Assembly: GCA_002497905.1 (NCBI GenBank)
Contig: DAFJ01000024.1
Span: 260-64,259, forward strand
Source: Euryarchaeota archaeon UBA251
GTDB taxonomy: Archaea > Thermoplasmatota > Poseidoniia > Poseidoniales > Thalassarchaeaceae
Direction of reading: 5' to 3'
Length of the DNA: 64,000 nucleotides
The notes under the pieces were generated by a model. That model worked only from the letters and a program-made list of their open reading frames with translations, was not told the origin of the DNA and searched no databases. Positions 5,395 to 40,481 of this stretch are shown piece by piece. A program made the position numbers and the translations under genes. Position 1 is the first letter of the stretch, and each line of letters begins with the position of its first letter.

Positions 5395-5400
5395 AGCCTG

Positions 5401-7223: not shown

Positions 7224-7225
7224 TT

Positions 7226-9058: not shown

Positions 9059-9068
9059 AGGTCAAACC

Positions 9069-9923: not shown

Positions 9924-10150
9924 CAAGCATTACATTTAGTAGACGCATGAGTCCCATCGCTTCTTCGATCTTGCCTGATAATCCTGTAAGTTGCTAGAGT
10001 TAAAACAACTGAAATTATTGACCAAGCCACTGTTGAAATCACCAGAAGAAATGAGCCGATATAATTCAAAATCATCTCACTGGTTTGTATCTTGTTGAGG
10101 CTGCTAATCATGATTCCAAAGACAATGACGGCCAGAATCGATTTGGCCAT
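9923..10150 (-). CDS. Small two-helix membrane protein, unknown function, first gene of the sdh cluster
   Basis: 75 aa with two hydrophobic helices. ATG at 10150; its stop overlaps the next start. Confidence 0.4.
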   Translation of the reverse strand: MAKSILAVIVFGIMISSLNKIQTSEMILNYIGSFLLVISTVAWSIISVVLTLATYRIIRQDRRSDGTHASTKCNA

Positions 10151-18906: not shown

Positions 18907-21900
18907 TCAGATGTCGAGATCCGCTAAATCGTCCTCAAGCGACGACAAGGCATCACGTTGGTTTGGGTCTGCTGGCATGGGAACACCGTTCCGGATAGAT
19001 TGTCGGTGCTCGGACATAGAATCGACTTCACGGAGTTGCCGTTCGGTCTCATGGAGGTCTTGAACTTCCTTTGATCCAAGGATTGCTGAGGTTGGAACAA
19101 GGCCTAGATCAGATCGGTTTGAGATACTGACGCCATGTGTCTCTGAAGGTTCAGGTAGGGGTTCCCAAGTAGAGCGAACTTCACCATCATTTCTTTCCAC
19201 CTTGCTGTTTTCTTCTTTCCGTTCTGGATCCATTTCTTGAAGTGCCCGGTCATCAATCTCAGGGCGTTGCACCCCAACTAGTCGCCCAGTCTCGAAAGGT
19301 AACATACCGGATCTTTGGAAGCGCCAGATTGGCCCATGGAATCCCCCTTCCTCACTTGAGAGTGCTTCGAGACGCTTCGCCATCCTCTCCAGTGCTTCAA
19401 TAGTCGAGGCAAGATCCACGGATTGTCCTGCGTCTCTCTGGTCTGCATCGATGTAGATATCGTCGAGGGCTGATTGGATAAGTGCTTGAGTTTCAGCAGC
19501 TATGCGCGGCAGTGTCTCAGGGCGTGTAAGCATTCGCTCAATCGCTTCAATTCGGCTTCCAGGCATACCAAGATCATTGAGGCTACGGAGAACGTCACGC
19601 ATTTGTCCAATGGTGGTGGCTGCTTCTTCGTAACCACGAATTATGTCTTCCAAATCTAGTACTACATCGTTGACAATTTGCCCGAGCATGTGGTGCAGGC
19701 GTTGTTGAACCGACCAGCGTGTCAGGCCACGGACAGCAGAAGCAGTCTCTGGAGCCTGTTGTTCAAGAAGATCCATCACTTCAGTCGAAAGAAGGTGACG
19801 TGGTGTTGCTGCAACTTCATCAACAGTGTGTTGGATAACCGCTAGTCCTCTCTCGACAGCGCGATCGAGGAGAACCATAGATAGGCCACGATTACGAGCA
19901 CTTTCCATCCGTTCAAGCACTGGTTCGAGTGCACGCAGTCCCTCGTCGTCAAGGAGGGCTCGTGCGAGCGGCTCTTCTTGGAGGCGTGCGCGGATACGGT
20001 CAGCTTCAGCAATGTCAACTAGTGCCTGTTCATGAGCATCAGTGAGTTCTTCTGCATCAGCAATCATCTCTCTGAGTTCCGCTTCTGCCTGCGCCTTCCG
20101 TGCATCGAGATCACCTAGTTCCCGCATCAGAGTCCGTCGTTCTGACATGAGTTCTTTCAATTCGGTCTGAAGGAGGGATTGCCTTCTCTCAAGGTCATTC
20201 GTGCGACCTCGATCTTCGTCGATTTGTCTCCTTAGAGTGTGGAGATCCCCTTCAAGTGCTGCAACTTCCGCTCGATGATTTCTCATACGTACTTCGGCTT
20301 CCTTTGTTTCTGCTTCAGCGAGACGGTGCCGGTCGCGTAGAGATGCGACCTGTTCGGAGAGAACACGTTGGACACGCTCATCTTCGTTGAGTGCAGTGCG
20401 GACTTCGTCGAGTCGAGATTCGGCATCATTGAGGGTAGCACGCGTCTCTACCTCCTTCTTCATAATCTCCTCAAGCTCAGTACTCAGTTCCTCGCGCTTC
20501 TTGCTCTCACCTATAGCCGATGCAATCTCACTGGCCTTGCGCTCGACGAGGTGTTCGAGTTCTGCGACACGCTTCGCAAGAGAATCAGCTCTTGTTCGAT
20601 CAGCCTCGCTAGATTCACCTGCACGTTGGACAATGAGTCGCGCTTGGTCCAATTCATCGTTTAGGCTTCGAGCCCGGTTAGTGGCCTCATCGAGGAGTGC
20701 TGTCTTCTGGGCGAGGGTTTCATCGGATTGAGTGCGTTGAGTCTGTTCCTCTTCGAGCATCCGTTCCAAACGACCACGGTCCCGCTCTAATCCAATTTTG
20801 TCATCTTCTAATCGTCTGATTCGGTCGAGGACTTGGCGATCTTCAGGCTGTAGTACTTTGCCCGCTGCAGAAGATGGTAGAATCTTCGCGGTAGCACGTC
20901 CACCCGTGTCTAATAATCTCCATTGGATCTTTGAAGAGGCTACAGCGTCCATCCCCATCTCGAATCGGTATAGTCGATCCAAACGGTCAGTAAGGAGGTC
21001 GCGCCTACTCTCTGAACGTGTGCGGACAGTGGCTATCGAATGACACATCGCTTCGAGAGTGAATCCTTCGATATTCCCTCGGCCAAGTGTGAGCCTTGCA
21101 GAGCGTTCCAAGCGATGGAGTTGAAGATCAGCACTTGGCGATGAGATATTACGAATTGAGGCAGCTAATTCCTCGACTGTTGAATAGATACCTGAGGGCA
21201 GCCCATCTATGAGAAGGATGGATACGGGTTCTCCCTTGCCTTCCGATTTCAAATGTCCCGTAATTTCCTCGGTCTTTGCCGTGGATAACATTGAGATTAA
21301 TGCGTCGACACCTCCTTTTCCTTCTCGAACAATGAATCCGTCTGATGGCGCCACAATCTCTGCATCAGCATCGTTTTCCGCAGGTTCAATCATGCCTGCA
21401 GCATTCATCAGGAGTGTCATAGGGTCGGCCCCGCCGGTCGTCCAGAGTGCTAATCCTGCTGTGCCATCTCTTGCGACAGTCATTTCATGCTCATCGAAGG
21501 CTTGTCGATACCAGGGTGCAGGGGATGCTCCCATGAGTTGAGTCAAGGCATCCATGCCTCTCATTTGGGCATCAAGATCTGCAGAAAGTGCATCCGGGTC
21601 AGCCGGCGTTTCACCTGAGGAATGGATGAGAACCCCATCCTCGAATGCTAGAGCCGCGATAACTCCAGTTTCCGATTCAAGCACGTCGACGACGAGGGGC
21701 CAATCATGCGTGGCTGCAGGTAGACGCCGTCCGGCTAGACCTAATGTTCCCATCAATGCCGGATCAGCAAGACATTCGGGAATGCCATCGATGAGGCTCC
21801 GCACTTCCTCTAACAATAGGGTGTATGCCTTGTGTCTCAATTCGTGAGCATCCTCTAACTCTACCAATCGTGCTTTTGCCGCATGTCCTCCGAGGTAGTG

Positions 21901-22086
21901 TTTGTTCTCCTCGGCATCAGCCAGCCAGCCGACTATATGTCCACCTGCCACAATTCTGTGTGCACAGGGGCTTCGTGACTTTGGTTTGTAACTCGAGATG
22001 ATTCCACATTCGAAATCAACCACTTCGTTCAGCGCACTCCCGTCGAATGTGCGGTCTATGGGGTCTCCATGGGGTAGGTCAAACAT
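18907..22086 (-). CDS. 1059-aa protein with a Roadblock/LC7-like segment, a PATAN(DUF4388)-like segment, a ~300-residue coiled coil and a helical C-terminal region
   Basis: Roadblock-like TGVIAALAFEDGVLIHSSGE..AGLALWTTGGADPMTLL at ~21382-21714. PATAN-like VDALISMLSTAKTEEITGHLKSEGKGEPVSILLIDGLPSGIYS at ~21052-21339. Uninterrupted E/R/L/A heptad-rich region at ~19927-20800. Confidence 0.7.
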   Translation of the reverse strand: MFDLPHGDPIDRTFDGSALNEVVDFECGIISSYKPKSRSPCAHRIVAGGHIVGWLADAEENKHYLGGHAAKARLVELEDAHELRHKAYTLLLEEVRSLIDGIPECLADPALMGTLGLAGRRLPAATHDWPLVVDVLESETGVIAALAFEDGVLIHSSGETPADPDALSADLDAQMRGMDALTQLMGASPAPWYRQAFDEHEMTVARDGTAGLALWTTGGADPMTLLMNAAGMIEPAENDADAEIVAPSDGFIVREGKGGVDALISMLSTAKTEEITGHLKSEGKGEPVSILLIDGLPSGIYSTVEELAASIRNISSPSADLQLHRLERSARLTLGRGNIEGFTLEAMCHSIATVRTRSESRRDLLTDRLDRLYRFEMGMDAVASSKIQWRLLDTGGRATAKILPSSAAGKVLQPEDRQVLDRIRRLEDDKIGLERDRGRLERMLEEEQTQRTQSDETLAQKTALLDEATNRARSLNDELDQARLIVQRAGESSEADRTRADSLAKRVAELEHLVERKASEIASAIGESKKREELSTELEEIMKKEVETRATLNDAESRLDEVRTALNEDERVQRVLSEQVASLRDRHRLAEAETKEAEVRMRNHRAEVAALEGDLHTLRRQIDEDRGRTNDLERRQSLLQTELKELMSERRTLMRELGDLDARKAQAEAELREMIADAEELTDAHEQALVDIAEADRIRARLQEEPLARALLDDEGLRALEPVLERMESARNRGLSMVLLDRAVERGLAVIQHTVDEVAATPRHLLSTEVMDLLEQQAPETASAVRGLTRWSVQQRLHHMLGQIVNDVVLDLEDIIRGYEEAATTIGQMRDVLRSLNDLGMPGSRIEAIERMLTRPETLPRIAAETQALIQSALDDIYIDADQRDAGQSVDLASTIEALERMAKRLEALSSEEGGFHGPIWRFQRSGMLPFETGRLVGVQRPEIDDRALQEMDPERKEENSKVERNDGEVRSTWEPLPEPSETHGVSISNRSDLGLVPTSAILGSKEVQDLHETERQLREVDSMSEHRQSIRNGVPMPADPNQRDALSSLEDDLADLDI

Positions 22087-23719: not shown

Positions 23720-25144
23720 TCATTCAATGGGGCGTTGTATTGCCTTTATCTCAAGGAACTCATCTAGACCTTCCACGCCAAGTTCTCGCCCATTCCCCGA
23801 TTGCTTGTAGCCGCCAAATGGTGCACTGACATTGAATGGTCCACCGTTTATGCTTACTTGACCAGTGCGCATACCCTTTGCGAATGCCATCGCTCGTTCG
23901 GAATCGCCTGACCAGACGCCGCCAGAAAGCCCGTAGATTGAATCGTTTGCTAGGGCAAGTGCCTCTTCTTCAGATTCGTATGTTGTAATTGTCATTACAG
24001 GGCCGAAAACCTCCTCTTTCCAGATTGTCATTTCAGGAGTGACGTCAGCAAAGGCAGTTGGCCGAACAAAGAAACCAGTTTCGATACCATCTGGCATCCC
24101 GGTACCTCCTGCAATCATTGTCGCACCTTGATCAATAGCCGATTGTATGTAACTGCGGACACTAGCTTGCTGTTTCGCAGATACCATTGGTCCACAGCGT
24201 GTATTCTCATCTAGTGGATCACCTGGAGTGTAGCCTTCTACACGCTTTTTGACTAACTCTAGAATCTCCTCTTTGTGTGCTACTGGGATAATGAGTCGAG
24301 TTAGTGCAGAACAGGTCTGGCCTGAGTTTTGGTAGCAGGCGCCAATCGATGATTTTGCAGCACGGATAACATCAGCGTCGTCGAGTATTACATTCGCGGA
24401 TTTCCCTCCAAGTTCAAGGGTCACGCGCTTCACAGTCGGTGCAGCCGCCCGAGAGACACGGATGCCAGCGCCGGTGGATCCGGTGAACGAAACCATGTCG
24501 ACATCTGGATGTCCCGAGAGAATCTCTCCAACCTCACTACCGTGTCCACTGACTAGGTTGAATACCCCTGGTGGGAGGCCAATGTCATGGAGAATATCAG
24601 CGAGTAAGAATGCGTTTAGTGGAGCCTCTTTGGATGGCTTGAGTACCATGGTGCAGCCGGCAGCAAGTGCAGGAGCTACCTTGCCGACAATCTGGTGGAG
24701 TGGAAAGTTCCACGGAGTGATGAAAGCACATACTCCTACAGGTTCCTTCGTGATAATCGAGTTTCGGACTTCATGCTCCCATTCGTAGGATTCAAGCATT
24801 TTCGCGTAAGATCTTGCAACAACGCGTGGAGTACCAACCATCGCCATACGGCTGTAGCCAATTGGTGTCCCAACTTCCGCTGTTATTGTCTGTGCTAACT
24901 CCTCGGTGAGTTCCTTGAGAGCCAACGAAAGGTCGTTGAGAGCAGACATACGAGTTTCGATGCTACTGTTAGCCCATTCCGGGAAGGCGCGTTTCGCCGC
25001 GGCAACTGCGAGATCTACATCTGCTGCCGATCCGGCGGGAACAGAACCGATGACCTGCTCGGTTGTGGGGTTGATAACCTCAATCGTTCCATCACCCTGA
25101 GAGGCAATCCATGCTCCATCGATGTACAGTTCTTCGCGTTGCAT
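23720..25144 (-). CDS. NAD-dependent aldehyde dehydrogenase
   Basis: ELGGKSA, GQTCSA (catalytic Cys), FTGSTGAG; 474 aa. Confidence 0.9.
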   Translation of the reverse strand: MQREELYIDGAWIASQGDGTIEVINPTTEQVIGSVPAGSAADVDLAVAAAKRAFPEWANSSIETRMSALNDLSLALKELTEELAQTITAEVGTPIGYSRMAMVGTPRVVARSYAKMLESYEWEHEVRNSIITKEPVGVCAFITPWNFPLHQIVGKVAPALAAGCTMVLKPSKEAPLNAFLLADILHDIGLPPGVFNLVSGHGSEVGEILSGHPDVDMVSFTGSTGAGIRVSRAAAPTVKRVTLELGGKSANVILDDADVIRAAKSSIGACYQNSGQTCSALTRLIIPVAHKEEILELVKKRVEGYTPGDPLDENTRCGPMVSAKQQASVRSYIQSAIDQGATMIAGGTGMPDGIETGFFVRPTAFADVTPEMTIWKEEVFGPVMTITTYESEEEALALANDSIYGLSGGVWSGDSERAMAFAKGMRTGQVSINGGPFNVSAPFGGYKQSGNGRELGVEGLDEFLEIKAIQRPIE

Positions 25145-25214: not shown

Positions 25215-26012
25215 ATGACTGTCGGCGTGGTAACCCAGGGTCAAACTGCGGTCGTGACGTTGTCAGAAGAAGCCTCTAACAACGCCTTCGATGCGGTCTC
25301 AATGGCGGCAATATCGGCCGAACTTACACGTCTGATGGATGATCCTGACATCAGATCCATCGTGATTACCGGGTCTGGTCGTGTGTTTTGTGCTGGTGCT
25401 GACATTCAGTCATTCAAGTATGCAATCGAGGATGGCTCTGCAGCGGACCTTGTTGCTACCTTGACCGGTATCCTTCATCCACTCCTTGTTCGTATGCGTG
25501 GCGATCCTACTGTTATGGTGGCAGCCATGAATGGAGCTGCTGCTGGAGGAGGTCTCGGGCTTGCATTAGCTTGTGATGTCCGCATCGCATCAACTAACGC
25601 ACGTATGGCCTCTGCATTCTTCCGGCTTGGACTCTCTCCAGATGGTGGAACTACGTGGCTTCTTCCACGTCTTGTGGGTATCCAGAATACTCGTCGTTTT
25701 CTCTTTGAAGATCAGACCTGGAGTGCAGAGGAAGCTTTGGATTTAGGTGCAGTCGATGAGGTTGTTGAAGCTGATGAACTCATACCTCGTGCGATTCGTA
25801 TTGCGATGGATTGGGGGCGCTGGTCTGATCAATCAAAGAGGTCTACAAAGCAGTTGTTGGATTCTCAATCCTCGACTTTCTTTGAGACTCAATTAGAATT
25901 TGAACGAATGCTCATTACGGAATCAAGCCGTTCACCCGACTTTGTCGAAGGTGTCGAATCTTTCCTCGAGAAGCGCGATCCAATCTTCCATTCTTCTGAT
26001 GAATCAGAATAA
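25215..26012 (+). CDS. Enoyl-CoA hydratase/isomerase (crotonase) family protein
   Basis: FCAGADI and AAMNGAAAGGGLGLALACD oxyanion-hole segments; 265 aa. Confidence 0.85.
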   Translation: MTVGVVTQGQTAVVTLSEEASNNAFDAVSMAAISAELTRLMDDPDIRSIVITGSGRVFCAGADIQSFKYAIEDGSAADLVATLTGILHPLLVRMRGDPTVMVAAMNGAAAGGGLGLALACDVRIASTNARMASAFFRLGLSPDGGTTWLLPRLVGIQNTRRFLFEDQTWSAEEALDLGAVDEVVEADELIPRAIRIAMDWGRWSDQSKRSTKQLLDSQSSTFFETQLEFERMLITESSRSPDFVEGVESFLEKRDPIFHSSDESE

Positions 26013-26279
26013 TTCAGCAGAGGATTCAATCCGTCTAAGCTGTGTAACTCGTAATGCGACTAGTGCGACACATGCCCCTGCAGCAATGTTCGATCCGATA
26101 ATTGCGAGTGAATTAATTAGAAATCCGTAGATTATCCATAGGACTAAGGCGATACAGATTGCTAAGAGGGTTGGTATTGAGATACCATCGTGAAGCCGTT
26201 GAACCATTACGCGATGGAGTTGTGGAAGCCAAGCGACGACACCGAGTAATCCGGCCATAGCACCGATTGCTTCAATCAT
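26004..26279 (-). CDS. SemiSWEET / PQ-loop three-helix transporter
   Basis: About 91 aa with three TM helices and a PQ motif (AWLPQLHRV). ATG at 26279; the track start at 26294 is GTG. Confidence 0.6.
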   Translation of the reverse strand: MIEAIGAMAGLLGVVAWLPQLHRVMVQRLHDGISIPTLLAICIALVLWIIYGFLINSLAIIGSNIAAGACVALVALRVTQLRRIESSAELF

Positions 26280-26303
26280 GACATCTGAAAGCACTGCGTC
26301 ACC

Positions 26304-27191
26304 TCAGAGATTGTGGTCACGATCACTTTTCTCACCTTTTGACCAATCATAGATACCTCGTCCGGTTTTCTTTCCGAGTTCACCATCTTCAACCAGTTGG
26401 TTGAGTAGTGGATGCGGGAGATATCGAGTATCATCGAAGGCCTTTGCAAGGTTGTTTAGGATATCTCTGCGAACATCGAGGCCTACAAGATCAGTTAGTT
26501 CCAAGGGTCCCATCGGGTGCCTGTATCCTAATCGCATCGCTGTGTCAATGTCGCTAGCAGAAGCGACGCCGTCCGCTAGCATACGAATTGCTTCGTTTCC
26601 GAGCACGACACCGAGCCGACTCGTGGCGAACCCTGGCACATCTCGGACTAGGATAGAGGTCTTGTCTAGATGTTCAGCGATACTTCGAGCCGCTTCGATG
26701 GTCTCATCACTCGTGCCATCATGTTGGATGAGTTCGAGGAGTGCCATCAACGGAACCGGATTGAAGAAGTGCATGCCGATGACACTTTGTGGCCTTGTGG
26801 TTACTTCTGCAATTTCTCCGATGGGGAGTCCAGAGGTATTACTTCCAAGGATTGCATGTGCAGGTGCTGCAGCATCGATTCTTTGGAAAATCTCTCTCTT
26901 TAGATCCATAATCTCTGGAACTGCTTCGATAACTAGATCTGCTTCACATACAGCGTCCTCAAGAGAATTTGTAGGGTGAAGATTTGCACTCCATTCAGAC
27001 TTTTGATTCTCGGTGGTCTTACCCCTAGCGATGCCCTTGTCCCAGAATGCATGTATACGTTCCATCCCTCGTTCAAGACCTTCAGGAAACGCATCATGGA
27101 GGTGTGTCTTCCAACCGGTTTGAGCACAGATTTGGGCGATACCCGCCCCCATCGTCCCGGCTCCAATCACGGCGACGGTTCGTATGTCCAT
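26304..27191 (-). CDS. 3-hydroxyacyl-CoA (3-hydroxybutyryl-CoA) dehydrogenase
   Basis: Rossmann motif VAVIGAGTMGAGIA, HFFNPVP motif and a C-terminal dimerisation domain. Confidence 0.9.
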   Translation of the reverse strand: MDIRTVAVIGAGTMGAGIAQICAQTGWKTHLHDAFPEGLERGMERIHAFWDKGIARGKTTENQKSEWSANLHPTNSLEDAVCEADLVIEAVPEIMDLKREIFQRIDAAAPAHAILGSNTSGLPIGEIAEVTTRPQSVIGMHFFNPVPLMALLELIQHDGTSDETIEAARSIAEHLDKTSILVRDVPGFATSRLGVVLGNEAIRMLADGVASASDIDTAMRLGYRHPMGPLELTDLVGLDVRRDILNNLAKAFDDTRYLPHPLLNQLVEDGELGKKTGRGIYDWSKGEKSDRDHNL

Positions 27192-27192: not shown

Positions 27193-28149
27193 TCATTCGA
27201 CAGTTATTGCCTGTACATCACCCTTCGCGCTCTGAGCGAATGCAACACCTCCGACGATTAGAACAAAGGCAAGTAGGAGACTCCACCCCAACTTCTCATC
27301 TAATAGGATCCAACCACTCAGAATTCCAAACAATGGAACCAGATAGACGTAGAGTGCGGCAGGCCCGGCTCCGATTGTTCGGATACCTTCTGCATACCAT
27401 ACATAGGATACAACAGTAGATAGAATGGCAAGGAAGAGGATTGCTGCCAATGCTTCTGTGGATGGTATGACCCATTGGCTTGATGCACCTTCCCAGATGA
27501 ATCCAGGTGTCAGAAATATGAGACCAGTAATCGATGACCAGACGGTGATGCGCAGTGGTGACATTGGTTTTTCACCATCTGGCGCGCTAGTCATACCTCG
27601 CTTCATTGCAATTGCAGATGCTGACCATGACAGTGCTGCCAACATTATGAACAAATCACCCAAAATTCGTGTGCCATTTGGTATGTCTATGTTCGGTGAT
27701 TGGAGGAAGAGAATCGCAACACCAGCGATTGCGAAAATGATCCCCGTTCCGAGTCGAGAAGTCATCTTCTCGTTAAGGAAGAAGATGGCTAGTATTGCAG
27801 TAAATAGTGGGTTAAATGTAATCATTAGTGATGCATCACCTGCTGCAGTCCGCTCCATGCCGAGCATGAAGAATACCTGGTAAAGAAAGGTTGAGAAGAA
27901 GCCGACAAAGGCTACGATTTTCCATTCTCTCATGTTTGGTAATGTAAAACGTCCAGTCGAAGCTAGCCAAGTGATGAATGCTAGGACGGCAACGAGGTAA
28001 CGGAGCCAAGATGCAGTGAAGGTGGGTATTTCTTGAGCAAGAACCCGTCCTGCCACCCAGCCAACGCCCCATATAGCGGCAACTACGACCAACCTAAGAT
28101 GGACAGTGAGGTGTTGCACACGATGCCGTCCATGTTTACGATGAATCAA
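27193..28149 (-). CDS. EamA/DMT superfamily transporter
   Basis: About 10 TM helices in two EamA-like repeats. The TTG start at 28149 directly abuts the upstream stop. Confidence 0.7.
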   Translation of the reverse strand: MIHRKHGRHRVQHLTVHLRLVVVAAIWGVGWVAGRVLAQEIPTFTASWLRYLVAVLAFITWLASTGRFTLPNMREWKIVAFVGFFSTFLYQVFFMLGMERTAAGDASLMITFNPLFTAILAIFFLNEKMTSRLGTGIIFAIAGVAILFLQSPNIDIPNGTRILGDLFIMLAALSWSASAIAMKRGMTSAPDGEKPMSPLRITVWSSITGLIFLTPGFIWEGASSQWVIPSTEALAAILFLAILSTVVSYVWYAEGIRTIGAGPAALYVYLVPLFGILSGWILLDEKLGWSLLLAFVLIVGGVAFAQSAKGDVQAITVE

Positions 28150-28710
28150 TCATTCGCGTCCATATGCAGCAAGCGCGGCTTGGAAGAGACGCTGTCTAGG
28201 CACGTCATGCTCCAAGAAGCACGTGAATGGAGCTAGGTCCTTCAGTAGCTCGATAGTACCAACATAGGCTCCATAGATGAATGGGTCAGCCTCCTCAGTC
28301 GCAGGTATCTCAAATCCGAGTTTTGCTAGCCCCTTACGTGTATCCTCATCCCATATTGCATATGTGTGGCTAGTGAAGTGCAGGTAAGCAGAAAGCCGTC
28401 GTAAATCGGAGGTCATTACATCGTCTAGGCTTTCGAATAGTAGGGTATCTGGATAGCGAATTGCAAGAAGGAATAGGCGTAGCATTATCTCCTGTTCACT
28501 AGATATTTTCAGTTCTTCTAACCCCATCCATTCGTCGATTAGGCCAAACATATGATTGGGATATGGACGATACACCTTGTAGAGTAACTCTTCGTAACCT
28601 TCGGGATCTTCTTCGGCTTGGTGATGGTGCATCTCGAAGAGTTCGGGGACTCTCTCAAAGAAGGGGCGTAGACGATTACGGTCAACAGCAAGAAGGGATA
28701 GTGTCTGCAT
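28150..28710 (-). CDS. Hypothetical soluble acidic protein, downstream partner of the BoxB-like gene
   Basis: 186-aa ORF with ATG at 28710 and no recognisable motif. Same strand, 26 nt after the BoxB-like stop. Confidence 0.5.
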   Translation of the reverse strand: MQTLSLLAVDRNRLRPFFERVPELFEMHHHQAEEDPEGYEELLYKVYRPYPNHMFGLIDEWMGLEELKISSEQEIMLRLFLLAIRYPDTLLFESLDDVMTSDLRRLSAYLHFTSHTYAIWDEDTRKGLAKLGFEIPATEEADPFIYGAYVGTIELLKDLAPFTCFLEHDVPRQRLFQAALAAYGRE

Positions 28711-28736: not shown

Positions 28737-29882
28737 TTACTCCTTCCATTCACGATATTGAATCCATTCAACACCGGGGGCCATGTATTCTTCCATGAGT
28801 TTCTTTTCATCCGCTTCTGTAGGAAGGTTATCGTCAAGGTATTTTTGCCACTCAGAATCGCTTCCTTCGAATGGTTCGCCAGTGATAGTGTAGCGTTTGT
28901 CTGAGTACATGCCGATACCTCGATTGAATTTGTCTGAAGGACAGAACAACTCAGGTTCGCCTTCTTTCCTAGCCTTACTTGTCCGCTTCATGTCTGCACG
29001 GATTTCATCGAAGTAGAGCATGCGACTTGCTTCGTTTAGGTGCTCTCGATCAGCCTTTTCGGAAGATTCGCGCTCATCATATCTGCCCTTAACTCCATAG
29101 ACGTAAGCCCATTGAGCGGAAGTCGACTCATCTGTTCCAAATAGGTCAAGGCCGGTGCTGACCCATTTGTTGATGTATTTCTGAAGGAAGGCGACAGGAA
29201 TCACACCAGCTCTCACGATTCTGCGGATTCCATTTGCTCCGGTGCCTAAGTGGAAAGACTCTTCTTTTAGCATGGGTCCCATTGAAGCAGCCAGAGGCTG
29301 GAACGAACTTGTTGAGAGCATCTTGAGTTGATACTTCCCATCTCGGTCGATGAACTGGGTGAAGCAGAAGAAATCGAGCCAGTGATCAATTGGAGCGTTG
29401 AATGAACCAAGAAGACGGGTACCATCCTGTGCGTTTCTTTCAAGGAGTTTCGCGGCTTCTCTTACACCCTGTTCGCCGAAGTATGTGCAGAGGAGGTAAG
29501 CCATTTGCCATCCGTGGCGTTGTTCTTCACACATGATTCGAAGTGCGGACTTTCGATCGTACTCGGTCGGGGCAGTTGCAAGGAGATGGTTTTGCTGTTC
29601 GACGGAGGCGAATTCAGTGTCGCCCTGAACACTGACCATGGTTAGGATAGCATCGATAATGTTCTGTTGGGGGATTTGCATTCGGCGTTTCCATTTGGGC
29701 ATGCCCGCGAAATCACCGAATTCGATTGTATCTCCTGCGGAATCCCAATCAAAGCGAATTTCGAAGCGGTAGTCCCCAAGCCAAGATGGATCGAAGCCGA
29801 TACGAGTTTGCCAATCTTGGAATTCTTGGACCCACCCCTCAAAGTTGGGATGGTAATTCTCTACAATCTCAGTGGTGCTCAT
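28737..29882 (-). CDS. Diiron-carboxylate oxygenase of the BoxB (benzoyl-CoA 2,3-epoxidase component B)/PaaA-like group
   Basis: Two E-x-x-H diiron motifs, MCEEQRHGW and LKEESFHLG. VQGDTEFASVEQQ and FIDRDGKYQL closely resemble BoxB segments I recall (QGDTEPASVEQQ, DRDGKFQL). At 381 aa it is shorter than canonical BoxB. Confidence 0.65.
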   Translation of the reverse strand: MSTTEIVENYHPNFEGWVQEFQDWQTRIGFDPSWLGDYRFEIRFDWDSAGDTIEFGDFAGMPKWKRRMQIPQQNIIDAILTMVSVQGDTEFASVEQQNHLLATAPTEYDRKSALRIMCEEQRHGWQMAYLLCTYFGEQGVREAAKLLERNAQDGTRLLGSFNAPIDHWLDFFCFTQFIDRDGKYQLKMLSTSSFQPLAASMGPMLKEESFHLGTGANGIRRIVRAGVIPVAFLQKYINKWVSTGLDLFGTDESTSAQWAYVYGVKGRYDERESSEKADREHLNEASRMLYFDEIRADMKRTSKARKEGEPELFCPSDKFNRGIGMYSDKRYTITGEPFEGSDSEWQKYLDDNLPTEADEKKLMEEYMAPGVEWIQYREWKE

Positions 29883-29963
29883 GTTTAGTAGGGGGTGGAT
29901 GGTGGTATTTCAACATCAGCCATGGCCCGTGGAAAGCCATCCTGCGAGCAGGTGACTGGAATC

Positions 29964-30824
29964 TTAGTTTCCGGAGAAGCGCGGAGTTTCCTTTTCGACA
30001 TAGGCTTTGATTCCGGCCTTTGCATCATCCGATTGGAAGAGATCGGACTGGAGTTCACGCTCTAGCGCAAGATGATACTCCAATGGAATCTCCATCCCAC
30101 TCTGCACGCTTCGCTTGATGTTCCCAATGGCCTTAGCTGCAGCGAAAGGAAGGGTGAATCGACCAGCATAGTCTAGGGTATCTTGTCGGTATTCTTCGAG
30201 AGTCATACTGTCATATATGTCGTGCACTAGATCCATTTCTTTGGCCTCTTCAAACGAGAATTTTCGACCAGTGACCATGATCTCCATCGCTTTCGCTTTA
30301 CCGACGAGACGTGAAAGTCGAGCAGTACCACCTGTGCCTGCGAGGACACCAAGGGAGACCTCTGGAAGTCCTACCTGGAAGTTGCCCTTGCGACCAATGC
30401 GAATATCTGCTGCCATGGCGATTTCAAGGCCACCACCAACAGTATGGCCGTTCAGAGCAGCGATAACGAGTTTTGGGGTCTGTTCTAGGCGAGAGAGAGT
30501 TTCGTTTGCATGGAGGCAGAAGAAGTACTTGTAGCGCGGCGTGAGTTTGTTGAGATACTTGATGCTAGCACCAGCTGAAAAGAATTTGTCACCGTGTCCA
30601 GTGAGAAGTATTACTGAAACATCATCATCAAATCGAGCTGCAAGGATTGCGTCATCGATATCGTGCCACATTTCGCGAGTGTAGGTATTCACCGACGTCT
30701 TGTCGCCTTCAAGCGGTTCACCATCCGAATCGGAGATAAGTTCGATGATGGCGACACCATTGTCACTCACACCGTAGTTCACAAGTCGGTTCTTCATAGG
30801 CTTCAGTTCAGGCCACTCTGACAT
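29964..30824 (-). CDS. Crotonase-superfamily enzyme (enoyl-CoA hydratase/hydrolase)
   Basis: FFSAGASI and ALNGHTVGGGLEIAMAAD oxyanion-hole motifs. ATG at 30824 avoids overlap with the upstream gene; the longer track ORF to 30956 is probably an artefact. Confidence 0.8.
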   Translation of the reverse strand: MSEWPELKPMKNRLVNYGVSDNGVAIIELISDSDGEPLEGDKTSVNTYTREMWHDIDDAILAARFDDDVSVILLTGHGDKFFSAGASIKYLNKLTPRYKYFFCLHANETLSRLEQTPKLVIAALNGHTVGGGLEIAMAADIRIGRKGNFQVGLPEVSLGVLAGTGGTARLSRLVGKAKAMEIMVTGRKFSFEEAKEMDLVHDIYDSMTLEEYRQDTLDYAGRFTLPFAAAKAIGNIKRSVQSGMEIPLEYHLALERELQSDLFQSDDAKAGIKAYVEKETPRFSGN

Positions 30825-30867
30825 ACATCGCCCAACGGAACGGGGCATAAGAAGTTGAGGTCGAGTA

Positions 30868-32106
30868 TCAGGCGGTGTCATTATCGCCGAAGGACACCCG
30901 TCCCCCGGAGGATCTGATACTCTTCCACTCCTCTGCAATCTCGTTCGCTCTGACACTCATTTCCCACTCGTCTCGCTTCAACGCCTTTCTGAAGGGCATT
31001 CTTCGTGCAGTTCGCCCATCGGTCAGTTGCACCTTTCTAAGTAGCAGTTGTTTTGTAATCGGCCAAAGCATACGGCGAAACAATCCTGGCTTGTATAGAC
31101 GTTCCATGAACAATAGACCATCTCCAGTTTTCTCTTGGTTCTTCATCCAATAAGTAGCGACTCGCTTGAATCCACGGTCGCCAATACGGTTCATCAGTAG
31201 GCGGTTAGTTGCACTAGTACGAATCGATGGGAGCAACGTGGAGCGGATACGTGCATCGTATTCTTGGCCGCCTCCATTGAGGATGGTTTGCGCTGCGTGA
31301 ACACCACTTGTAATCGCATAACGCATTCCAAAGCCCCACATAAAGTCCTGAAGCCCACCGGCTTCACCAACGTAGTACTTTCCATCATGGTAGTAGGAAT
31401 TAGGGAGGGAGAAGTCACCCATCCCTCCGACCCGTTTGATAGGTTCACGATCGAGGTCAGGATACATCCGTTCATACCAGGCAATAGTCTCGTTGAGATA
31501 TCGATTTGATTGTTTTTGTTTACGCCATAGACAGGTGCATATGAGGCCTATTCCTTGTATGACTATTAGGTAAGAATAGGCGCCTGGCGCTAACTTGTCA
31601 TTGAGTTGAAATGTCACATGATCAGGGTGAGATGTTCGAAAAACTTCGCCAAATGCGACTGCACTCGTCTTCTTCGGACCTGCGGCAATGATGGTGCAAG
31701 TTTCTGGGTCAACCTTTGAACCGTATCTAATTTCTGCACCTGCTTTGATTGCCATCCGCTTGAATCCCTGGTCGATACAGTGTTCATCTGTACCTCGTTC
31801 AACAATTCTGAACGCTAGTCGAGGGCTCTGAGGTATGGTGATTGTGTCATCTGGGTGTGCCAGATCCATCTGCTTGAAATCTGTTGAACGGAAGCCATCA
31901 GGATCTAGTCCCCATTCTCTCATTTCATCGAAGAAGTCACTGCTTTGTGTCCAATTTTCAAGGCCTTGAAAATCTCCATCAAAACGGGCTCCGGAATCTT
32001 TCCGAATATCGTGAACGGTGACATTCCGGCCCGCTTTAGCAAGAATAGTGGCCGCCGCGAGGCCGGAAAGACCAGCACCGAGAATGTGGATAACCTCGTC
32101 CGACAT
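30868..32106 (-). CDS. FAD-dependent oxidoreductase (geranylgeranyl-reductase/FixC-like fold)
   Basis: The dinucleotide fold IHILGAGLSGLAAATILAKAG sits right after the ATG at 32106. GD motif VGEAGG. Confidence 0.75.
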   Translation of the reverse strand: MSDEVIHILGAGLSGLAAATILAKAGRNVTVHDIRKDSGARFDGDFQGLENWTQSSDFFDEMREWGLDPDGFRSTDFKQMDLAHPDDTITIPQSPRLAFRIVERGTDEHCIDQGFKRMAIKAGAEIRYGSKVDPETCTIIAAGPKKTSAVAFGEVFRTSHPDHVTFQLNDKLAPGAYSYLIVIQGIGLICTCLWRKQKQSNRYLNETIAWYERMYPDLDREPIKRVGGMGDFSLPNSYYHDGKYYVGEAGGLQDFMWGFGMRYAITSGVHAAQTILNGGGQEYDARIRSTLLPSIRTSATNRLLMNRIGDRGFKRVATYWMKNQEKTGDGLLFMERLYKPGLFRRMLWPITKQLLLRKVQLTDGRTARRMPFRKALKRDEWEMSVRANEIAEEWKSIRSSGGRVSFGDNDTA

Positions 32107-35897: not shown

Positions 35898-37646
35898 TCA
35901 GACTCGTCGTCGTAACCTTTCCATCCGTCCATCTGCGTCACCTAGTGCGTCGAGACATCTAGGGACATCGGCTACTTCGTAGGCCTCCTTCACACTGGCG
36001 ACTGCGGCTTCGCATTCCAATCGTTCTAAATCATCAGGGCCAATTCCGGTCTTCTGTAGACGATTCCTGAGGTCTTTCCATTCACCGAGTAGGAATTCAA
36101 GGAGTTCTGTAGCATCTTCTATCGCAGCAGTACGAGCATCGAGTTCCTTTGTTAATTCATCCATAGACTCTGCAGCAGCCCTCCAAGACCCTTTCTTAGT
36201 AGCATCAAGGATTTGCCCTAATTTTGCTTCCCAATTTTCTTCATCAGACCAACCGACCCATCGCTTGCGTAGGGTTTTGCGTTGTCGCAGTGATCGTTGA
36301 ACACTCGCCTTAGCTTCCTCAGTAGCCTCAATCTCCCTTCGGATGGAATCTGCCAGTCCTCGTGCAAGAGAACCATCTCCTGCGTCTAGTGCTTCTTCTG
36401 CACGATTGAGCATTTCCTCCCAGAGCGTGATATCGAGCCCATCAGTCCGTGCGAGCAGGTCTTTTGCGTCTTGCACAGCTTCAGAGGCTGCTTCCATGGC
36501 TTCACCGAGATTGCTGACGTGTGTAGGGATAGCCAGAGCGATAGTCAATGCATCTCCAGGTTCTTCCGCATCCATTGCATCCTGTGCCGCTTGTAGGAGC
36601 GCATTCATCCGTTCTAAATCGGTTCCAGTCACCCCTTCCATGGATTTTTTTGCTTCATGAATTGCTTTTTCTGCATTCGCCCAGTTTGCGATGATGTCTT
36701 GCGCTCGAGTTTTTGCACGCCGATACAACATCTCCCCGTCTCGTAGACTACCAAGTTCGACCTCTCTTCGCCCTTGTTCCAGGGCCTTCATAGGCCGTTC
36801 AGCGAGAGGTGCGATTTCTTCAGATTCTTTGACGAATGTTGCGGCGTCCTCCTCAATTACCGTTATGTCTTCGGAGAAACTCAGGATGCGTTCCAGGTCA
36901 TCTTCCGCTTGTCGGAGAAGATGCATCCCCTCGTCGTGATCCGTCCAACCAACTTCGTTTGCCTTGGAGAGAAGAGATATTGCCTGATCGATGATGGTAC
37001 CGGAGGCTCGTACTTCGAGGAGACGAAGTTCAAGGGTCTCGTATCTATCTTTGAAAGCGCGTCTTTGTGTACGATCATCCTTGCCAAGTCGGAGATCGAA
37101 GCCGAATACAAAACCGGCGAACAACAGAGCAACTAGATACATCGCGATTTCTCTCTCAGGAATTTCAGCGATACACCATGCGGCTGCGATACCTATTCCA
37201 AGTAATCGTGTCATAGCTCGATATCGGATAACTTCGGATCGTGCCTCTTGTCCGAAAATTATCGTGTTTGAAACCATCAGGACTGCCCCGGAAAACATCC
37301 ATCCAATTCCAGCGAATTGACCGTCTTGGTGTTGGGATTCGATTGCATAAAACAATCCTGCCACTATGAGGGCAGGGCCAAGCATACCGCTTATAGTGCC
37401 AATTCGGGATCTCTGGTTAGGTCCGAAATCAACTAAATCTGCAACGAGGAGAGAACATCCGAGAAGGGCGAATAAGGGTATGAAACCATTGGACTCAGTA
37501 TCCCCTGATAGTGTTGGAAAGGCTAGGTATGCACCGAGAGAAACTAATGCAAGTGTGGTAATCAATCCGATACCATCTACGGGGCGTCGCCAAGCAGAGA
37601 GAGCTTGCTGAATACGCAATTCCTTGGAGTCCACCTCTCCCTCCAT
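35898..37646 (-). CDS. Membrane protein (~6-7 N-terminal TM helices) with a ~390-aa acidic all-helical cytoplasmic domain
   Basis: 582-aa ORF with ATG at 37646. Hydrophobic N-terminal third, then an A/E/L/R-rich helical region. Confidence 0.6.
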   Translation of the reverse strand: MEGEVDSKELRIQQALSAWRRPVDGIGLITTLALVSLGAYLAFPTLSGDTESNGFIPLFALLGCSLLVADLVDFGPNQRSRIGTISGMLGPALIVAGLFYAIESQHQDGQFAGIGWMFSGAVLMVSNTIIFGQEARSEVIRYRAMTRLLGIGIAAAWCIAEIPEREIAMYLVALLFAGFVFGFDLRLGKDDRTQRRAFKDRYETLELRLLEVRASGTIIDQAISLLSKANEVGWTDHDEGMHLLRQAEDDLERILSFSEDITVIEEDAATFVKESEEIAPLAERPMKALEQGRREVELGSLRDGEMLYRRAKTRAQDIIANWANAEKAIHEAKKSMEGVTGTDLERMNALLQAAQDAMDAEEPGDALTIALAIPTHVSNLGEAMEAASEAVQDAKDLLARTDGLDITLWEEMLNRAEEALDAGDGSLARGLADSIRREIEATEEAKASVQRSLRQRKTLRKRWVGWSDEENWEAKLGQILDATKKGSWRAAAESMDELTKELDARTAAIEDATELLEFLLGEWKDLRNRLQKTGIGPDDLERLECEAAVASVKEAYEVADVPRCLDALGDADGRMERLRRRV

Positions 37647-37685: not shown

Positions 37686-40481
37686 TCATGGGCGCCCAAA
37701 ACGCCGATCAAAGAGGACACCTGCGGTGTACGCGATTAGCACAATCCAGATGATCATCTTAGCTGTCTCTCGCCAAGCTGGCTCCACTATGGGGCCTGCA
37801 CTGGCTATACTATTGATTTCACCATCTTTGATCCATTCAACAACAATGCTCTGTGTTCCACTAGGGAGATCCTCGAATTCAAGGCTAAGTGTAAGGATAC
37901 CTTCTGAATCGATTGTTGCAGCTGGGAGGGTGCCATTATCACATGAATTCGCCATGCAGACGCTTACATCATGAGAATCTGCACCCATGTTCGCAACAAC
38001 AATCCGGACAGTCGCGGGTTGTCCACTCACACCTCCATCGACAATCATTACATCCTCAATTCTTGGTAGGAACGTTCCGGATGGATGGATTTCCACGATG
38101 GAAGAATGACTTCCGATGTTGCCTGCCCGGTCCGTACCAGTTACGACAAGGGTATGTCTTCCGCGATTGAGCCCATTTATTGGGAATCTATCTGCATCCT
38201 CCCATGACGCATTTTCAAAGAGAAGTATACCATTGATTGAAGCAGTCCAAAGCACGGCATCAATAGGGTCAAGATCATCGAATGATTCAGACATATCAAT
38301 CTCGATTATCGACTCCATTTTGGCAGTGTTTGTTGAGCCTATTGGTAATCCATTAACGAGAATCGAAGGTCTCGGAACCGGGCCAAAGAGATCGAGGGAG
38401 GTTACAGACCATTCTTTCTCTATGGTGTTCCCCACGGAGTCTGAAACCTCCAGCTTCAGCCACCGAACAGCGGGTTCCCGTTCTTTATGACGTTCCTCAA
38501 TCGTCATGTGCATGCCGTTGATATGATCGCCCTGTGGCCACATCTCAGCGAAGTAGAGGCGATTGTCAGCCATCCGGTTCCATCCATCGCTTCGGTTTGA
38601 GGTCAGGATGATTTGGGTTGATTCCCCATTTGTATCGTTCGCGTGTATATCAACGATGATGGTGCTAGTAGCATTAATCGATACTGCATCCATAAATTCG
38701 ATTTCGTGCAGAATTTGTGCCCAGTAGGATGGATGATCTTCGAGCATTACAATCTCCCAGTTAGGTGGAGTGGAATCGAGGACTAGGTCATGAGTAATAT
38801 CGGTTCGATTACCATGGGAATCGATACAGGTGGCTTGAATTAGCACGTCTTCTCCTTCCGATTGCTCTGCAGAATCAAAGGTAATGGAGAAGTTTGCTCC
38901 ATTATGAGCGCCAGTAAAATCGTCTCCAATAATCTGCCATTGCATCTGGACATCGCCTGGACTTGAATCGGTACAAGTCATAGTCTGCTCGATGGGCCCT
39001 CCAAGGCGGGCATAGTTGTTCGATAACCCGATACCATTGATTGAAACCTCTGGTGCCTCATTCTTTGCGATAACAATGAGAATCTCTCCAGTTACATCCA
39101 TCGAGGAGCGTTGGACAGTCACCTGATTCCCATTTGCCAAAATATGATTCGATTGTGGACTTTGTCGCATTTCCCATTCATCGGGTAGAGTTATGCTTAG
39201 GTCGATACCATCGCGAGCATCGCCTCGGAACGGTACAACTAATCTTCTACTCATATCAGTGTCGCTTTCTCTCCCAATCTGTCCGGATTCTGACCACCCC
39301 CAACTAACTCCATCGTCGAGAACCCCTGGTGAAGAGGGCTCAATCCAAGCATCCGTGGGAGATATTGGAGGATATGCAAACATCGCTCTATCATCGAGTA
39401 TACAACAGCCCACATGACTCCCATTCCACCATTTCAAATCATGTAGCATGTTACTGAAGGAAGAGAACTCAGCCCCTTGGACAATACCGTCCCAATTACC
39501 ATGGAATCGATCAATTTGGATTCCAATTCCTGAGGTGATGGCAGGGAGAGATCCATGGCCGATGAGGGAATCAAATCGATGATTTGCTGAGAAGTATGCC
39601 TCGATAGCTGTATTTGGATTAAGTGGGGAATTAGCGAAGATGAGTGATGCAGATCCTGACGGTAGGTTACGTGTGTCTATGGGGGAATTTAGCCATGCTT
39701 CAATGTCCTCAAAGAGTGCATCATCGATGATATGGGCATGAGCTTCGATTTCTCCATTATCGAGTCGCCAGAGGTGCCATTCACCACCACTTATTCTCGG
39801 CATGAGGTAGTCTATGGCTCCATTCACCTCGATAATCTCAGACCAACCACTGGGAGAATGCCGAATCAGCATGGAACCGTTCCAATACGAATTACTAGCC
39901 ATTAAGCGGAGATTGCCGATTGACATCACGTCAATCTCGTTTTCACCGTTCCATTCAGTTAGCTGAATCTGTTCTCCATCACGTATTTCGATCCAACCTT
40001 TCGAAGCATTTGGTAGATGAATTGAATCGTCATCAATCGGATTTACTTGCCATCCAATGGTCCGATTTGTGAGGGTACGAATCACTGTTGTCTGCCCAAC
40101 TCCAGTCAAGTTAATCTGATCTTCAGTGAGAATTTTGACGTCTACGATGGTGGTATTTGTTCCGTTGGGGTGGATGACATCGGACCGCTCAATGTGTAAA
40201 TCACTAGTGAATATCTCAGGGCGAAAGGATTCTGATGAAGTCCACCCAATAGAATATGTTGTACCCTGTACATCGGTTGCTGCAGAGAGAACTCTTCCAG
40301 ACCATGGGTCGATGAGTTCAATCGTTATATCTGCTACAGGGTAAGGATTTCCTGATGAATCAATGAATCTAAACTCAATCCCTGAAGGTTCAGGCACCTC
40401 TGCTCCATGAAGAGGAGTGCTTGAGAGAACCAATACGAAGAGGACAAGGAGTGTGTGTAGGCGAAAGGGATTCACCCCCAT
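37686..40481 (-). CDS. Secreted, C-terminally anchored 931-aa surface protein (beta-rich/Ig-like)
   Basis: Signal peptide LLVLFVLVLSSTPLHGAEV and C-terminal TM IIWIVLIAYTAGVLF followed by basic residues. Its start overlaps the stop of the upstream sugar kinase by 10 nt. Confidence 0.75.
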   Translation of the reverse strand: MGVNPFRLHTLLVLFVLVLSSTPLHGAEVPEPSGIEFRFIDSSGNPYPVADITIELIDPWSGRVLSAATDVQGTTYSIGWTSSESFRPEIFTSDLHIERSDVIHPNGTNTTIVDVKILTEDQINLTGVGQTTVIRTLTNRTIGWQVNPIDDDSIHLPNASKGWIEIRDGEQIQLTEWNGENEIDVMSIGNLRLMASNSYWNGSMLIRHSPSGWSEIIEVNGAIDYLMPRISGGEWHLWRLDNGEIEAHAHIIDDALFEDIEAWLNSPIDTRNLPSGSASLIFANSPLNPNTAIEAYFSANHRFDSLIGHGSLPAITSGIGIQIDRFHGNWDGIVQGAEFSSFSNMLHDLKWWNGSHVGCCILDDRAMFAYPPISPTDAWIEPSSPGVLDDGVSWGWSESGQIGRESDTDMSRRLVVPFRGDARDGIDLSITLPDEWEMRQSPQSNHILANGNQVTVQRSSMDVTGEILIVIAKNEAPEVSINGIGLSNNYARLGGPIEQTMTCTDSSPGDVQMQWQIIGDDFTGAHNGANFSITFDSAEQSEGEDVLIQATCIDSHGNRTDITHDLVLDSTPPNWEIVMLEDHPSYWAQILHEIEFMDAVSINATSTIIVDIHANDTNGESTQIILTSNRSDGWNRMADNRLYFAEMWPQGDHINGMHMTIEERHKEREPAVRWLKLEVSDSVGNTIEKEWSVTSLDLFGPVPRPSILVNGLPIGSTNTAKMESIIEIDMSESFDDLDPIDAVLWTASINGILLFENASWEDADRFPINGLNRGRHTLVVTGTDRAGNIGSHSSIVEIHPSGTFLPRIEDVMIVDGGVSGQPATVRIVVANMGADSHDVSVCMANSCDNGTLPAATIDSEGILTLSLEFEDLPSGTQSIVVEWIKDGEINSIASAGPIVEPAWRETAKMIIWIVLIAYTAGVLFDRRFGRP

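Follow-up and report, generated by a model that had tools for sequence, protein, structure and literature searches.

A shortened BoxB-like subfamily of predicted diiron oxygenases in a CoA-ester gene cluster, neither box nor paa, of the archaeal order Poseidoniales

We analysed a 64,000-nucleotide stretch of contig DAFJ01000024.1 from Euryarchaeota archaeon UBA251 (the window, whose positions serve as coordinates throughout) and find that a 381-aa diiron protein encoded in it belongs, by its sequence, to a distinct shortened subfamily of BoxB-like diiron oxygenases that is kept across the order Poseidoniales. Its gene lies in a cluster of coenzyme A (CoA) ester genes that is neither a box nor a paa cluster. 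We propose, with a probability of roughly 0.55, that the protein is a catalytically intact, O2-dependent acyl- or aroyl-CoA oxygenase that feeds a box/paa-like hydrolytic and beta-oxidative module. No other planktonic archaea are as abundant in the surface ocean as Poseidoniales. Marine Group II (MGII) archaea are uncultured, globally abundant photoheterotrophs whose diet of proteins and lipids is still inferred from genomes. An oxygenase of the BoxB family found order-wide would offer a clonable entry to an O2-dependent catabolic step that has gone unrecognised, and a testable lead to the MGII diet.

The diiron protein scores 218 bits (E 2.1e-64) against the NCBIfam profile of BoxB, TIGR03225, versus 34.8 bits (E 9e-9) against that of PaaA, TIGR02156. 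Among PDB sequences its best match is BoxB of Azoarcus evansii (3PER, E 3.3e-49), followed by 4MUD (235 aa, 2.6e-20) and PaaA (~1e-5), and it is 34% identical across 396 aa to an annotated Mycetohabitans BoxB. The motifs CEEQRH, KEESFH, VQGDTEFASVEQQ and FIDRDGKYQL are all present in the translation. These motifs and the positions of the open reading frames (ORFs) are as given by a first-pass annotation made from the letters alone, which had also called the protein BoxB-like. The profile scores bear this out, and at 35 bits for PaaA versus 218 for BoxB we ruled out a PaaA-type or other ferritin-like assignment. In A. evansii BoxB, iron is bound by E120, E150, H153, D211, E240 and H243 (residue list from Liao and Siegbahn, PMC5489048). 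The alignment shows that all six ligands are retained, as E90, E120, H123, D179, E208 and H211. Six of the seven second-shell residues that position the benzoyl group are likewise retained (Q116, T119, S123, F193, F203 and F206 in BoxB numbering).

Other comparisons set the protein apart from BoxB and weigh against our functional proposal. The score of 218 bits falls short of the TIGR03225 equivalog cut-off of 499, with the best stretch covering profile positions 63-325 of 471. At 381 aa the protein is about 90 residues shorter than BoxB (~470-475 aa) and lacks an N-terminal insertion (~35 aa), two internal insertions and the C-terminal tail. The seventh second-shell residue, BoxB Thr210, is changed to Ile178 in the window protein and to Val in MGIIa. 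Position 210 is Thr in all 24 representatives of the canonical clade and another residue in every non-canonical one. The second-shell residues that are retained may reflect catalysis, not the benzoyl ring, because they are conserved family-wide. We collected 864 relatives at E<=1e-3 among 1.84 billion cluster representatives and placed full-length representatives in a neighbour-joining (NJ) distance tree, drawn without bootstrap. Canonical BoxB of ~470 aa forms one tight monophyletic clade in this tree, and the Poseidoniales proteins fall outside it with the bacterial P0122 and P0123 (47-48% identity). The relationship to BoxB named in the first-pass annotation stands, at a position outside the canonical BoxB clade. 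Taken together, cut-off, length, Thr210 and tree rule out orthology to BoxB; therefore, identity of substrate with BoxB should not be assumed. Further non-canonical BoxB-like clades are P0252/P0231/P0265/P0169, P0128, P0144 and P0147. A BoxB-like paralogue of 367 aa, P0166, is without the iron ligands (E120H, E150N, H153S, D211N, E240H) and may be a non-catalytic, PaaC-like structural relative.

The closest species-representative genome is that of Euryarchaeota archaeon UBA40 (99% identity), which places the window in Poseidoniales (MGIIb) and agrees with the archaeal source read from the sequence at first pass. Diiron proteins of Thalassarchaeaceae (MGIIb) are 71-88% identical to that of the window, and those of Poseidoniaceae (MGIIa) 58-64%. 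All of the best 80 loci come from Poseidoniales save two contigs of mis-binned appearance. L049 (labelled Salinimicrobium sp.) and L070 (labelled Rhodobiaceae bacterium) carry a Poseidoniales-type diiron-186aa-EamA block at 60-64% identity inside bacterial metagenome-assembled genomes; they are probably archaeal contigs that were mis-binned.

On the minus strand, from 32106 to 26004, seven genes form one co-directional packed array with gaps of 0-81 nt (Table 1). They encode a flavin adenine dinucleotide (FAD) protein, a crotonase related to enoyl-CoA hydratases (ECH1), the diiron protein, a 186-aa protein, an EamA transporter, a 3-hydroxyacyl-CoA dehydrogenase (HCDH) and a SemiSWEET transporter. 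The gaps are 43 nt (FAD/ECH1), 81 nt (ECH1/diiron), 26 nt (diiron/186aa), 0-30 nt (186aa/EamA), 1 nt (EamA/HCDH) and ~9 nt (HCDH/SemiSWEET). No obvious TATA box was seen in the 81-nt spacer ahead of the diiron gene.

We followed synteny with the window proteins as tblastn queries versus 90 loci. The order in MGIIb, with strands as signs, is FBA-, GlpX-, MoaC- / FAD+, ECH1+, diiron+, 186aa+, HCDH+, SemiSWEET+, ECH2-, ALDH+, ECH3- (ALDH, aldehyde dehydrogenase). That in MGIIa is ECH1-, FAD- / MoaC+, GlpX+ / diiron+, 186aa+, EamA+, HCDH+, ECH2-, then another ALDH paralogue. Because it is common to both orders, diiron-186aa-(EamA)-HCDH-ECH2 is the order-wide core, found in both Poseidoniales families down to 58% identity. 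Wherever a locus is long enough to include it, HCDH comes next after the 186-aa gene or EamA, and crotonase 2 is on the opposite strand in both families. EamA occurs in Poseidoniaceae and, within MGIIb, in the window's own lineage alone. FAD and ECH1 adjoin wherever both are detected, near the diiron gene. In MGIIa they form a separate, divergently transcribed unit, with MoaC and GlpX between it and the diiron gene. The block of FAD-ECH1 and MoaC-GlpX (about locus position 5000-10000) is inverted between Poseidoniaceae (L050-L090) and Thalassarchaeaceae (L001-L048); in consequence, MGIIb alone has FAD-ECH1 running in the same direction as the diiron gene.

The first-pass annotation had put forward an order of oxidoreductase, crotonase, oxygenase, 186-aa protein and EamA. 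As a whole this order holds just in the immediate lineage (L005-L007, L011), and it is the diiron-186aa-(EamA)-HCDH-crotonase 2 part that is order-wide. Ending the cluster at EamA also overlooked HCDH, a PaaG-like crotonase and ALDH downstream, which make the cluster look more, rather than less, like a complete post-epoxidation route. In other MGIIb (L001 and others) ECH3 stands directly after ALDH. It lies ~27 kb away in the window genome, with NadA at 55329-56480, displaced by a genome rearrangement that split the cluster.

Table 1. Genes of the cluster in the window, with assignments backed by Pfam and NCBIfam profile searches
Feature	Position	Strand	Description
FAD protein	30868-32106	-	412 aa, start MSDEVIHILGAG
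Crotonase 1 (ECH1)	29964-30824	-	286 aa, start MSEWPE; longer GTG-start ORF reaches 30956
Diiron protein	28737-29882	-	381 aa, short BoxB-like diiron oxygenase (predicted); PF05138
186-aa ORF	28150-28710	-	All-alpha protein (predicted), no family match
EamA/DMT transporter	27193-28149	-	PF00892 E 7e-47
3-Hydroxyacyl-CoA dehydrogenase (HCDH), PaaH/Hbd type	26304-27191	-	PF02737 + PF00725; PRK09260 325 bits, PaaH 235 bits
SemiSWEET/PQ-loop small transporter	26004-26294	-	NF037968 E 4e-13; MGIIb only
Crotonase 2 (ECH2), PaaG/oxepin-CoA-hydrolase-like	25215-26012	+	Converges on diiron-gene array
NAD(P)-dependent aldehyde dehydrogenase (ALDH)	23720-25144	-	Divergent from crotonase 2; PF00171 E 2e-159
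Crotonase 3 (ECH3), PaaF/short-chain ECH-like	52264-53163	-	PF00378 E 3e-53; PaaF 211 bits, under cut-off

From family, ligands and neighbours we infer the following route. A reduced Fe(II)-Fe(II) centre would activate O2 and, by epoxidation or hydroxylation, insert one oxygen atom into the acyl group of a CoA thioester. The substrate would most likely carry a benzoyl-like aromatic ring, or else some other ring or chain with unsaturation. Opening or hydration of the oxygenated thioester would fall to crotonase 1, a putative two-Glu hydratase with a BoxC-type motif, and to crotonase 2, a PaaG-like isomerase/hydrolase. Any resulting aldehyde would be oxidised by the neighbouring ALDH, and chain shortening would proceed via HCDH, giving a box/paa-like 'hybrid' route. 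Electrons would come not from BoxA; candidates are the flavoprotein of the cluster or a general ferredoxin/reductase encoded elsewhere. With a hydratase, an isomerase/hydrolase, an ALDH and an HCDH, the locus holds every post-epoxidation enzyme class of the box or paa route, and the proposed sequence parallels the post-epoxidation steps of both (PMC4498308). A benzoyl-like ring would be favoured by the retention of a pocket rich in Phe, by the BoxC motif that ECH1 carries and by a ligase in the distant locus L159 described below. Speaking against such a ring are Thr210 to Ile, the separate clade, the lack of a ligase nearby and the generic downstream enzymes.

Crotonase 1 belongs to PF00378 (E 6e-45) and has both catalytic Glu residues (GGGLE, LPEV). 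Its closest PDB match is the single-domain ECH of Geobacillus kaustophilus, 2PPY (E 1e-59), with BoxC (2W3P) at just 1e-17. Compared with a genuine BoxC (from L181), it is 34% identical to the catalytic N-domain across 192 aa (E 6e-21). The BoxC-like segment pointed out at first pass is real. The K..FC...NET motif reads WKVNFCKFTNET in Mycetohabitans BoxC and YKYFFCLHANET (KYFFCLHANET) in crotonase 1; being common to both, it bears out the first-pass reading at motif level. Of 67 Poseidoniales orthologues of crotonase 1, 65 retain the motif, and 2PPY bears it too, as FKTQFCLFCNET. Because crotonase 1 and 2PPY are unusually similar and share this motif, these data suggest that they represent an uncharacterised crotonase subfamily related to the catalytic domain of BoxC. 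The BoxC profile TIGR03222, against which genuine BoxC scores 976 bits, is not among the 25 best families of crotonase 1. With a single domain, 2PPY closer and TIGR03222 outside the top families, crotonase 1 is ruled out as a BoxC orthologue, and the N-domain resemblance stands. The motif named at first pass is there, but globally the nearest protein is an ordinary ECH, with BoxC at ~1e-17 to 1e-20.

Crotonase 2 is of the isomerase/hydrolase type, its GGGLG and LSPDGG having Gly and Asp where the two catalytic Glu are expected. Its best or near-best families all lie below cut-off (oxepin_alt, NF046063, 182 bits vs 300; PaaG, TIGR02280, 168 vs 345), and it matches the PaaG structure 4FZW_C at E 4e-36. 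ALDH is of the generic betaine/aminoaldehyde class (BADH 455 bits, under cut-off), and the BoxD homologue 2VRO is absent from its 60 best PDB matches.

The FAD protein has a GxGxxG motif and PF13450 (Pfam). Over its C-terminal half it scores 32 bits against the geranylgeranyl reductase (GGR) profile TIGR02032, whose cut-off is 158.8. In Foldseek its AlphaFold2 model (pLDDT 82, pTM 0.86) retrieves the Thermoplasma GGR 3OZ2 (E 7e-15, TM ~0.6), then kynurenine monooxygenase (KMO), flavin halogenases and FixC 7KOE (E 1e-12). On this model the protein is predicted to have the GGR/group A flavoprotein monooxygenase fold, in line with the GGR/FixC fold named at first pass. The RCGE-type motif, which we take to hold the catalytic Cys of GGR, was not noticed on reading the translation. 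We ruled out homology to BoxA (TIGR03224), of which two [4Fe-4S] motifs and an FNR-like FAD/NADPH module are the hallmarks: blastp against BoxA gave E 4.9, and neither an Fe-S nor an FNR module is present. It is a candidate reductase of the diiron site, but could equally be an enzyme that reduces or monooxygenates the substrate. We know of no diiron oxygenase that has a GGR-fold flavoprotein as its partner. The first-pass suggestion that this protein reduces the diiron centre found no supporting evidence, and in Poseidoniaceae FAD-ECH1 is a separate divergent unit.

One MGIIa subclade is arranged differently. In L053 (6413-9932), as also in L049, L052 and L054, neither FAD-ECH1 nor MoaC-GlpX is upstream of the diiron gene. 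Directly upstream of it these loci have an HTH_10 regulator, and they also encode a biotin carboxylase as well as a flavoprotein that is CysJ-like (FAD_binding_1/NAD_binding_1). In its C-terminal part this flavoprotein matches the FNR module of BoxA at 32% identity (E 5e-15).

The 186-aa protein has no match in Pfam (even at E 10 and with three MGIIa orthologues included), in NCBIfam or among PDB sequences, and none at E<=10 to box proteins, DUF4863 included. AlphaFold2 predicts an all-alpha protein of 12 helices (pLDDT 82). Foldseek returned nothing significant for this model, the top entries being the HhH DNA glycosylases MagIII 1PU6 (E 2.6) and MutY, at E >2 and TM ~0.3-0.36. The likeness of 'IWDEDTRKGLAKLG' to the HhH-GPD motif is vague, and the scores are not significant. 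On all contigs that reach beyond the diiron gene, save L078, the gene for the 186-aa protein follows on its downstream side. Among its 174 homologues, all those with a named source come from Thalassarchaeaceae or unclassified archaea. The protein is found only in Poseidoniales and is fast-evolving, with 27-37% identity between the two families.

CoA-ester genes recur around some distant relatives of the diiron protein. In L097 (1190-5428), L101 and L102, from hydrothermal-vent and other metagenome contigs, a 394-aa BoxB-like protein (~31% identity to the window protein) shares an operon with a 492-aa double crotonase of BoxC-like architecture and a 505-aa flavoprotein. This flavoprotein belongs to the GGR/halogenase superfamily (WxWxIP motif, CmlS 92 bits, GG-red-SF 65 bits). 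In L159 and L124 (metagenome, GC 0.68-0.69), ALDH, a crotonase 47% identical to ECH1 and GNAT lie upstream of the diiron gene. The longer contig, L159 (178-10577), goes on with a benzoate-CoA ligase family protein (TIGR02262, 723 bits vs a cut-off of 375). It also encodes a second AMP ligase, a FAD_binding_2 flavoprotein like aspartate oxidase or fumarate reductase, and an NMT1-like binding protein. By its gene content the L159/L124 operon resembles an aryl-CoA pathway that lacks both BoxA and BoxC and is as yet uncharacterised. The L097- and L159-type loci show that BoxB-like proteins without BoxA/BoxC can belong to aryl-CoA-type pathways, with a flavoprotein as a recurrent neighbour.

The genomic context also provides points on the other side of the balance. 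Both of these lineages stand at a large distance from the MGII clade. Among bacteria, the relatives that come closest (37-48% identity) are orphan genes, one of them beside a TetR regulator and two beside MgtE plus a methyltransferase, and there are no CoA genes around P0122, P0123, P0128, P0144, P0169, P0147 and P0265. When the neighbours of 39 soil-type (P0252-like) loci were clustered, GNAT alone was recurrent, apart from artefactual antisense ORFs that arise from high G+C; most members of this clade have unrelated neighbours or GNAT. Within Poseidoniales, the housekeeping genes FBA, GlpX and MoaC (gluconeogenesis, molybdopterin) are as syntenic as the CoA genes, so synteny inside one order is weak functional evidence. 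As the first-pass annotation had noted, no BoxA, orthologous BoxC or aryl-CoA ligase is nearby. BoxA and benzoate-CoA ligase (queries from L181) gave no tblastn match across the whole 64 kb at E<=1, crotonase 1 is single-domain, and the ~30 of 52 long window ORFs that were scanned include no acyl/aryl-CoA ligase, thiolase or BoxA. Therefore, the cluster is not a standard box or paa cluster. In 80 Poseidoniales loci the same two queries gave just partial FNR-domain matches, in four MGIIa loci, and no paaB, paaC, paaD or paaE gene lies within 10 kb either side of the diiron gene. NCBIfam and PDB comparisons give no support for ALDH as a BoxD- or PaaZ-like enzyme, and another ALDH paralogue occupies its position in MGIIa. 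The ECH, HCDH and ALDH proteins are generic beta-oxidation-type enzymes, and the MGII genome papers treat these neighbour genes as fatty-acid beta-oxidation (PMC6336850, PMC9723583).

How do other explanations compare? We regard it as unlikely that there is a complete, re-wired archaeal box pathway in which the diiron protein serves as a genuine benzoyl-CoA 2,3-epoxidase. There the GGR-fold flavoprotein would replace BoxA as an NAD(P)H-dependent reductase and crotonase 1 would replace BoxC, with ALDH as BoxD before PaaG/PaaF/PaaH-like steps. The six retained benzoyl-positioning residues would fit such an enzyme; Thr210 to Ile and a clade apart from all canonical BoxB would not. ECH1 does have the BoxC motif and the catalytic Glu pair, but it is much nearer the ordinary ECH 2PPY than BoxC. 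Tight packing of FAD-ECH1-diiron on one strand in MGIIb, and the analogous crotonase-diiron-flavoprotein triad in L097 and L102, would suit a three-part system. However, FAD-ECH1 is a separate divergent unit in MGIIa, and the FAD protein, with neither an Fe-S nor an FNR module, is not similar to BoxA. A benzoate-CoA ligase stands beside the distant non-canonical member in L159, whereas the 64 kb of the window contain no aryl-CoA ligase, and the ALDH is generic. We are similarly doubtful of a bolder scheme in which Poseidoniales would run a BoxA- and BoxC-independent, O2-dependent dearomatising aryl-CoA pathway. It would comprise a short BoxB-type epoxidase that is reduced by the GGR-fold flavoprotein, a ring hydrolase in the form of a BoxC-like crotonase of one domain, and the lineage-specific 186-aa protein as a novel accessory subunit, followed by ALDH and beta-oxidation. 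If true, this scheme would give archaea their first aerobic aromatic pathway of the 'hybrid' kind and make that pathway a sink for dissolved organic matter of aromatic nature.

A somewhat more remote prospect is that the protein acts as an oxygenase (by hydroxylation, desaturation or epoxidation) on an acyl-CoA of aliphatic or isoprenoid type, as an adjunct to lipid beta-oxidation. It might, for example, help to pass a branch or double bond in phytol- or archaeal-lipid-derived acids, with a flavoprotein that saturates C=C and is no electron donor. MGII are predicted to degrade lipids and proteins, and beta-oxidation genes are widespread among them (PMC6336850, PMC9723583); the neighbouring ECH, HCDH and ALDH are generic; yet the cluster has no acyl-CoA dehydrogenase or thiolase. 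The top structural match of the flavoprotein is an archaeal lipid GGR, although its GGR family score is very low (32 bits vs a cut-off of 159). No characterised enzyme of the BoxB/PaaA family is known to have an aliphatic acyl-CoA substrate, and the Phe-rich pocket residues of BoxB are retained. The bacterial orphan genes at 37-48% identity, the P0252-like genes beside unrelated genes or GNAT, and the equal synteny of FBA, GlpX and MoaC would all suit a diiron protein that acts alone, or at most with the 186-aa protein as partner, on an unrelated small molecule. Its place among the CoA genes would then be functionally meaningless, a context inherited as order-wide synteny. We consider this improbable indeed: both characterised members of PF05138, BoxB and PaaA, act on CoA thioesters, gaps of 0-26 nt join diiron, 186aa, EamA and HCDH, and CoA-ester operons recur around distant members. 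An O2-dependent acyl- or aroyl-CoA oxygenase of the shortened BoxB-like subfamily remains our preferred reading.

The gene has already been auto-annotated, misleadingly, by public pipelines and was noticed once in passing. The diiron protein is represented by >5,600 clusters (90% identity) in a collection of 5.8 billion proteins. Public labels are 'benzoyl-CoA 2,3-dioxygenase component B' at JGI and 'hypothetical' or 'PaaI' at NCBI. A Red Sea metatranscriptome study (PMC5069720) lists an MGII boxB with the annotated archaeal genes of highest expression. This study was the sole paper mentioning the MGII gene that our literature search found, and the MGII genome papers do not discuss the gene. 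A literature search on the context of 2PPY gave nothing useful.

The same Red Sea paper (PMC5069720) describes highly expressed disordered surface proteins of MGII, to which the very long ORFs of the window may be related. These ORFs are 65-4987 (+, 1640 aa), 18907-22086 (-, 1059 aa), 35898-37646 (-, 582 aa) and 37686-40481 (-, 931 aa). No Pfam match is on record for the 1059-, 582- and 931-aa ORFs. When its translation was read by eye, the 582-aa ORF showed hydrophobic, membrane-like N-terminal stretches and then a long Glu/Ala/Arg-rich, coiled-coil-like region.

The MGII archaea may use oxygen to degrade aromatic or unusual acids. If the substrate is aromatic, archaea would join the CoA-dependent aerobic 'hybrid' aromatic pathways so far known from bacteria, and a minimal epoxidase system without BoxA or BoxC would be defined. 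If it is aliphatic, the chemistry of the PaaA/BoxB family would be widened. Either way, the KEGG/IMG 'boxB' calls in MGII concern non-orthologues and should not be taken as benzoate degradation.

Finally, we compared the proteins of the cluster with known systems. The FAD protein shares its predicted fold with archaeal GGR, group A flavoprotein monooxygenases and FixC, at just 12-19% identity and with a GGR score far under the cut-off. Crotonase 1 resembles BoxC in the alignable N-domain, in both Glu residues and in the K..FC...NET motif, whereas BoxC is a double-crotonase of 556 aa, which is co-purified with canonical BoxB. The SSO1313-type 'ring oxidation complex/phenylacetic acid degradation related protein' 4MUD, presumably from Sulfolobus, has the same fold as the diiron protein and is shorter, so that just the core helices align; its PDB entry states no function. 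PaaA, of the phenylacetyl-CoA 1,2-epoxidase PaaABCE, is a CoA-thioester epoxidase that shares PF05138 with the diiron protein. The paa system has the same downstream logic, with a PaaG-like isomerase, a hydrolase and ALDH, PaaF and PaaH. It differs in that the diiron protein reaches 35 bits against the TIGR02156 cut-off of 280, with no PaaB, PaaC, PaaD or PaaE genes nearby. BoxB of Azoarcus evansii (3PER/3PM5) differs from the diiron protein in that the latter has an archaeal host and no BoxA/BoxC neighbours. Both have the ferritin-like diiron fold with six identical iron ligands and the motifs QGDTE.ASVEQQ, EE.RH, F.DRDGK.QL and EE..H, and both appear to be monomer-type single catalytic subunits without a PaaC-like partner gene.

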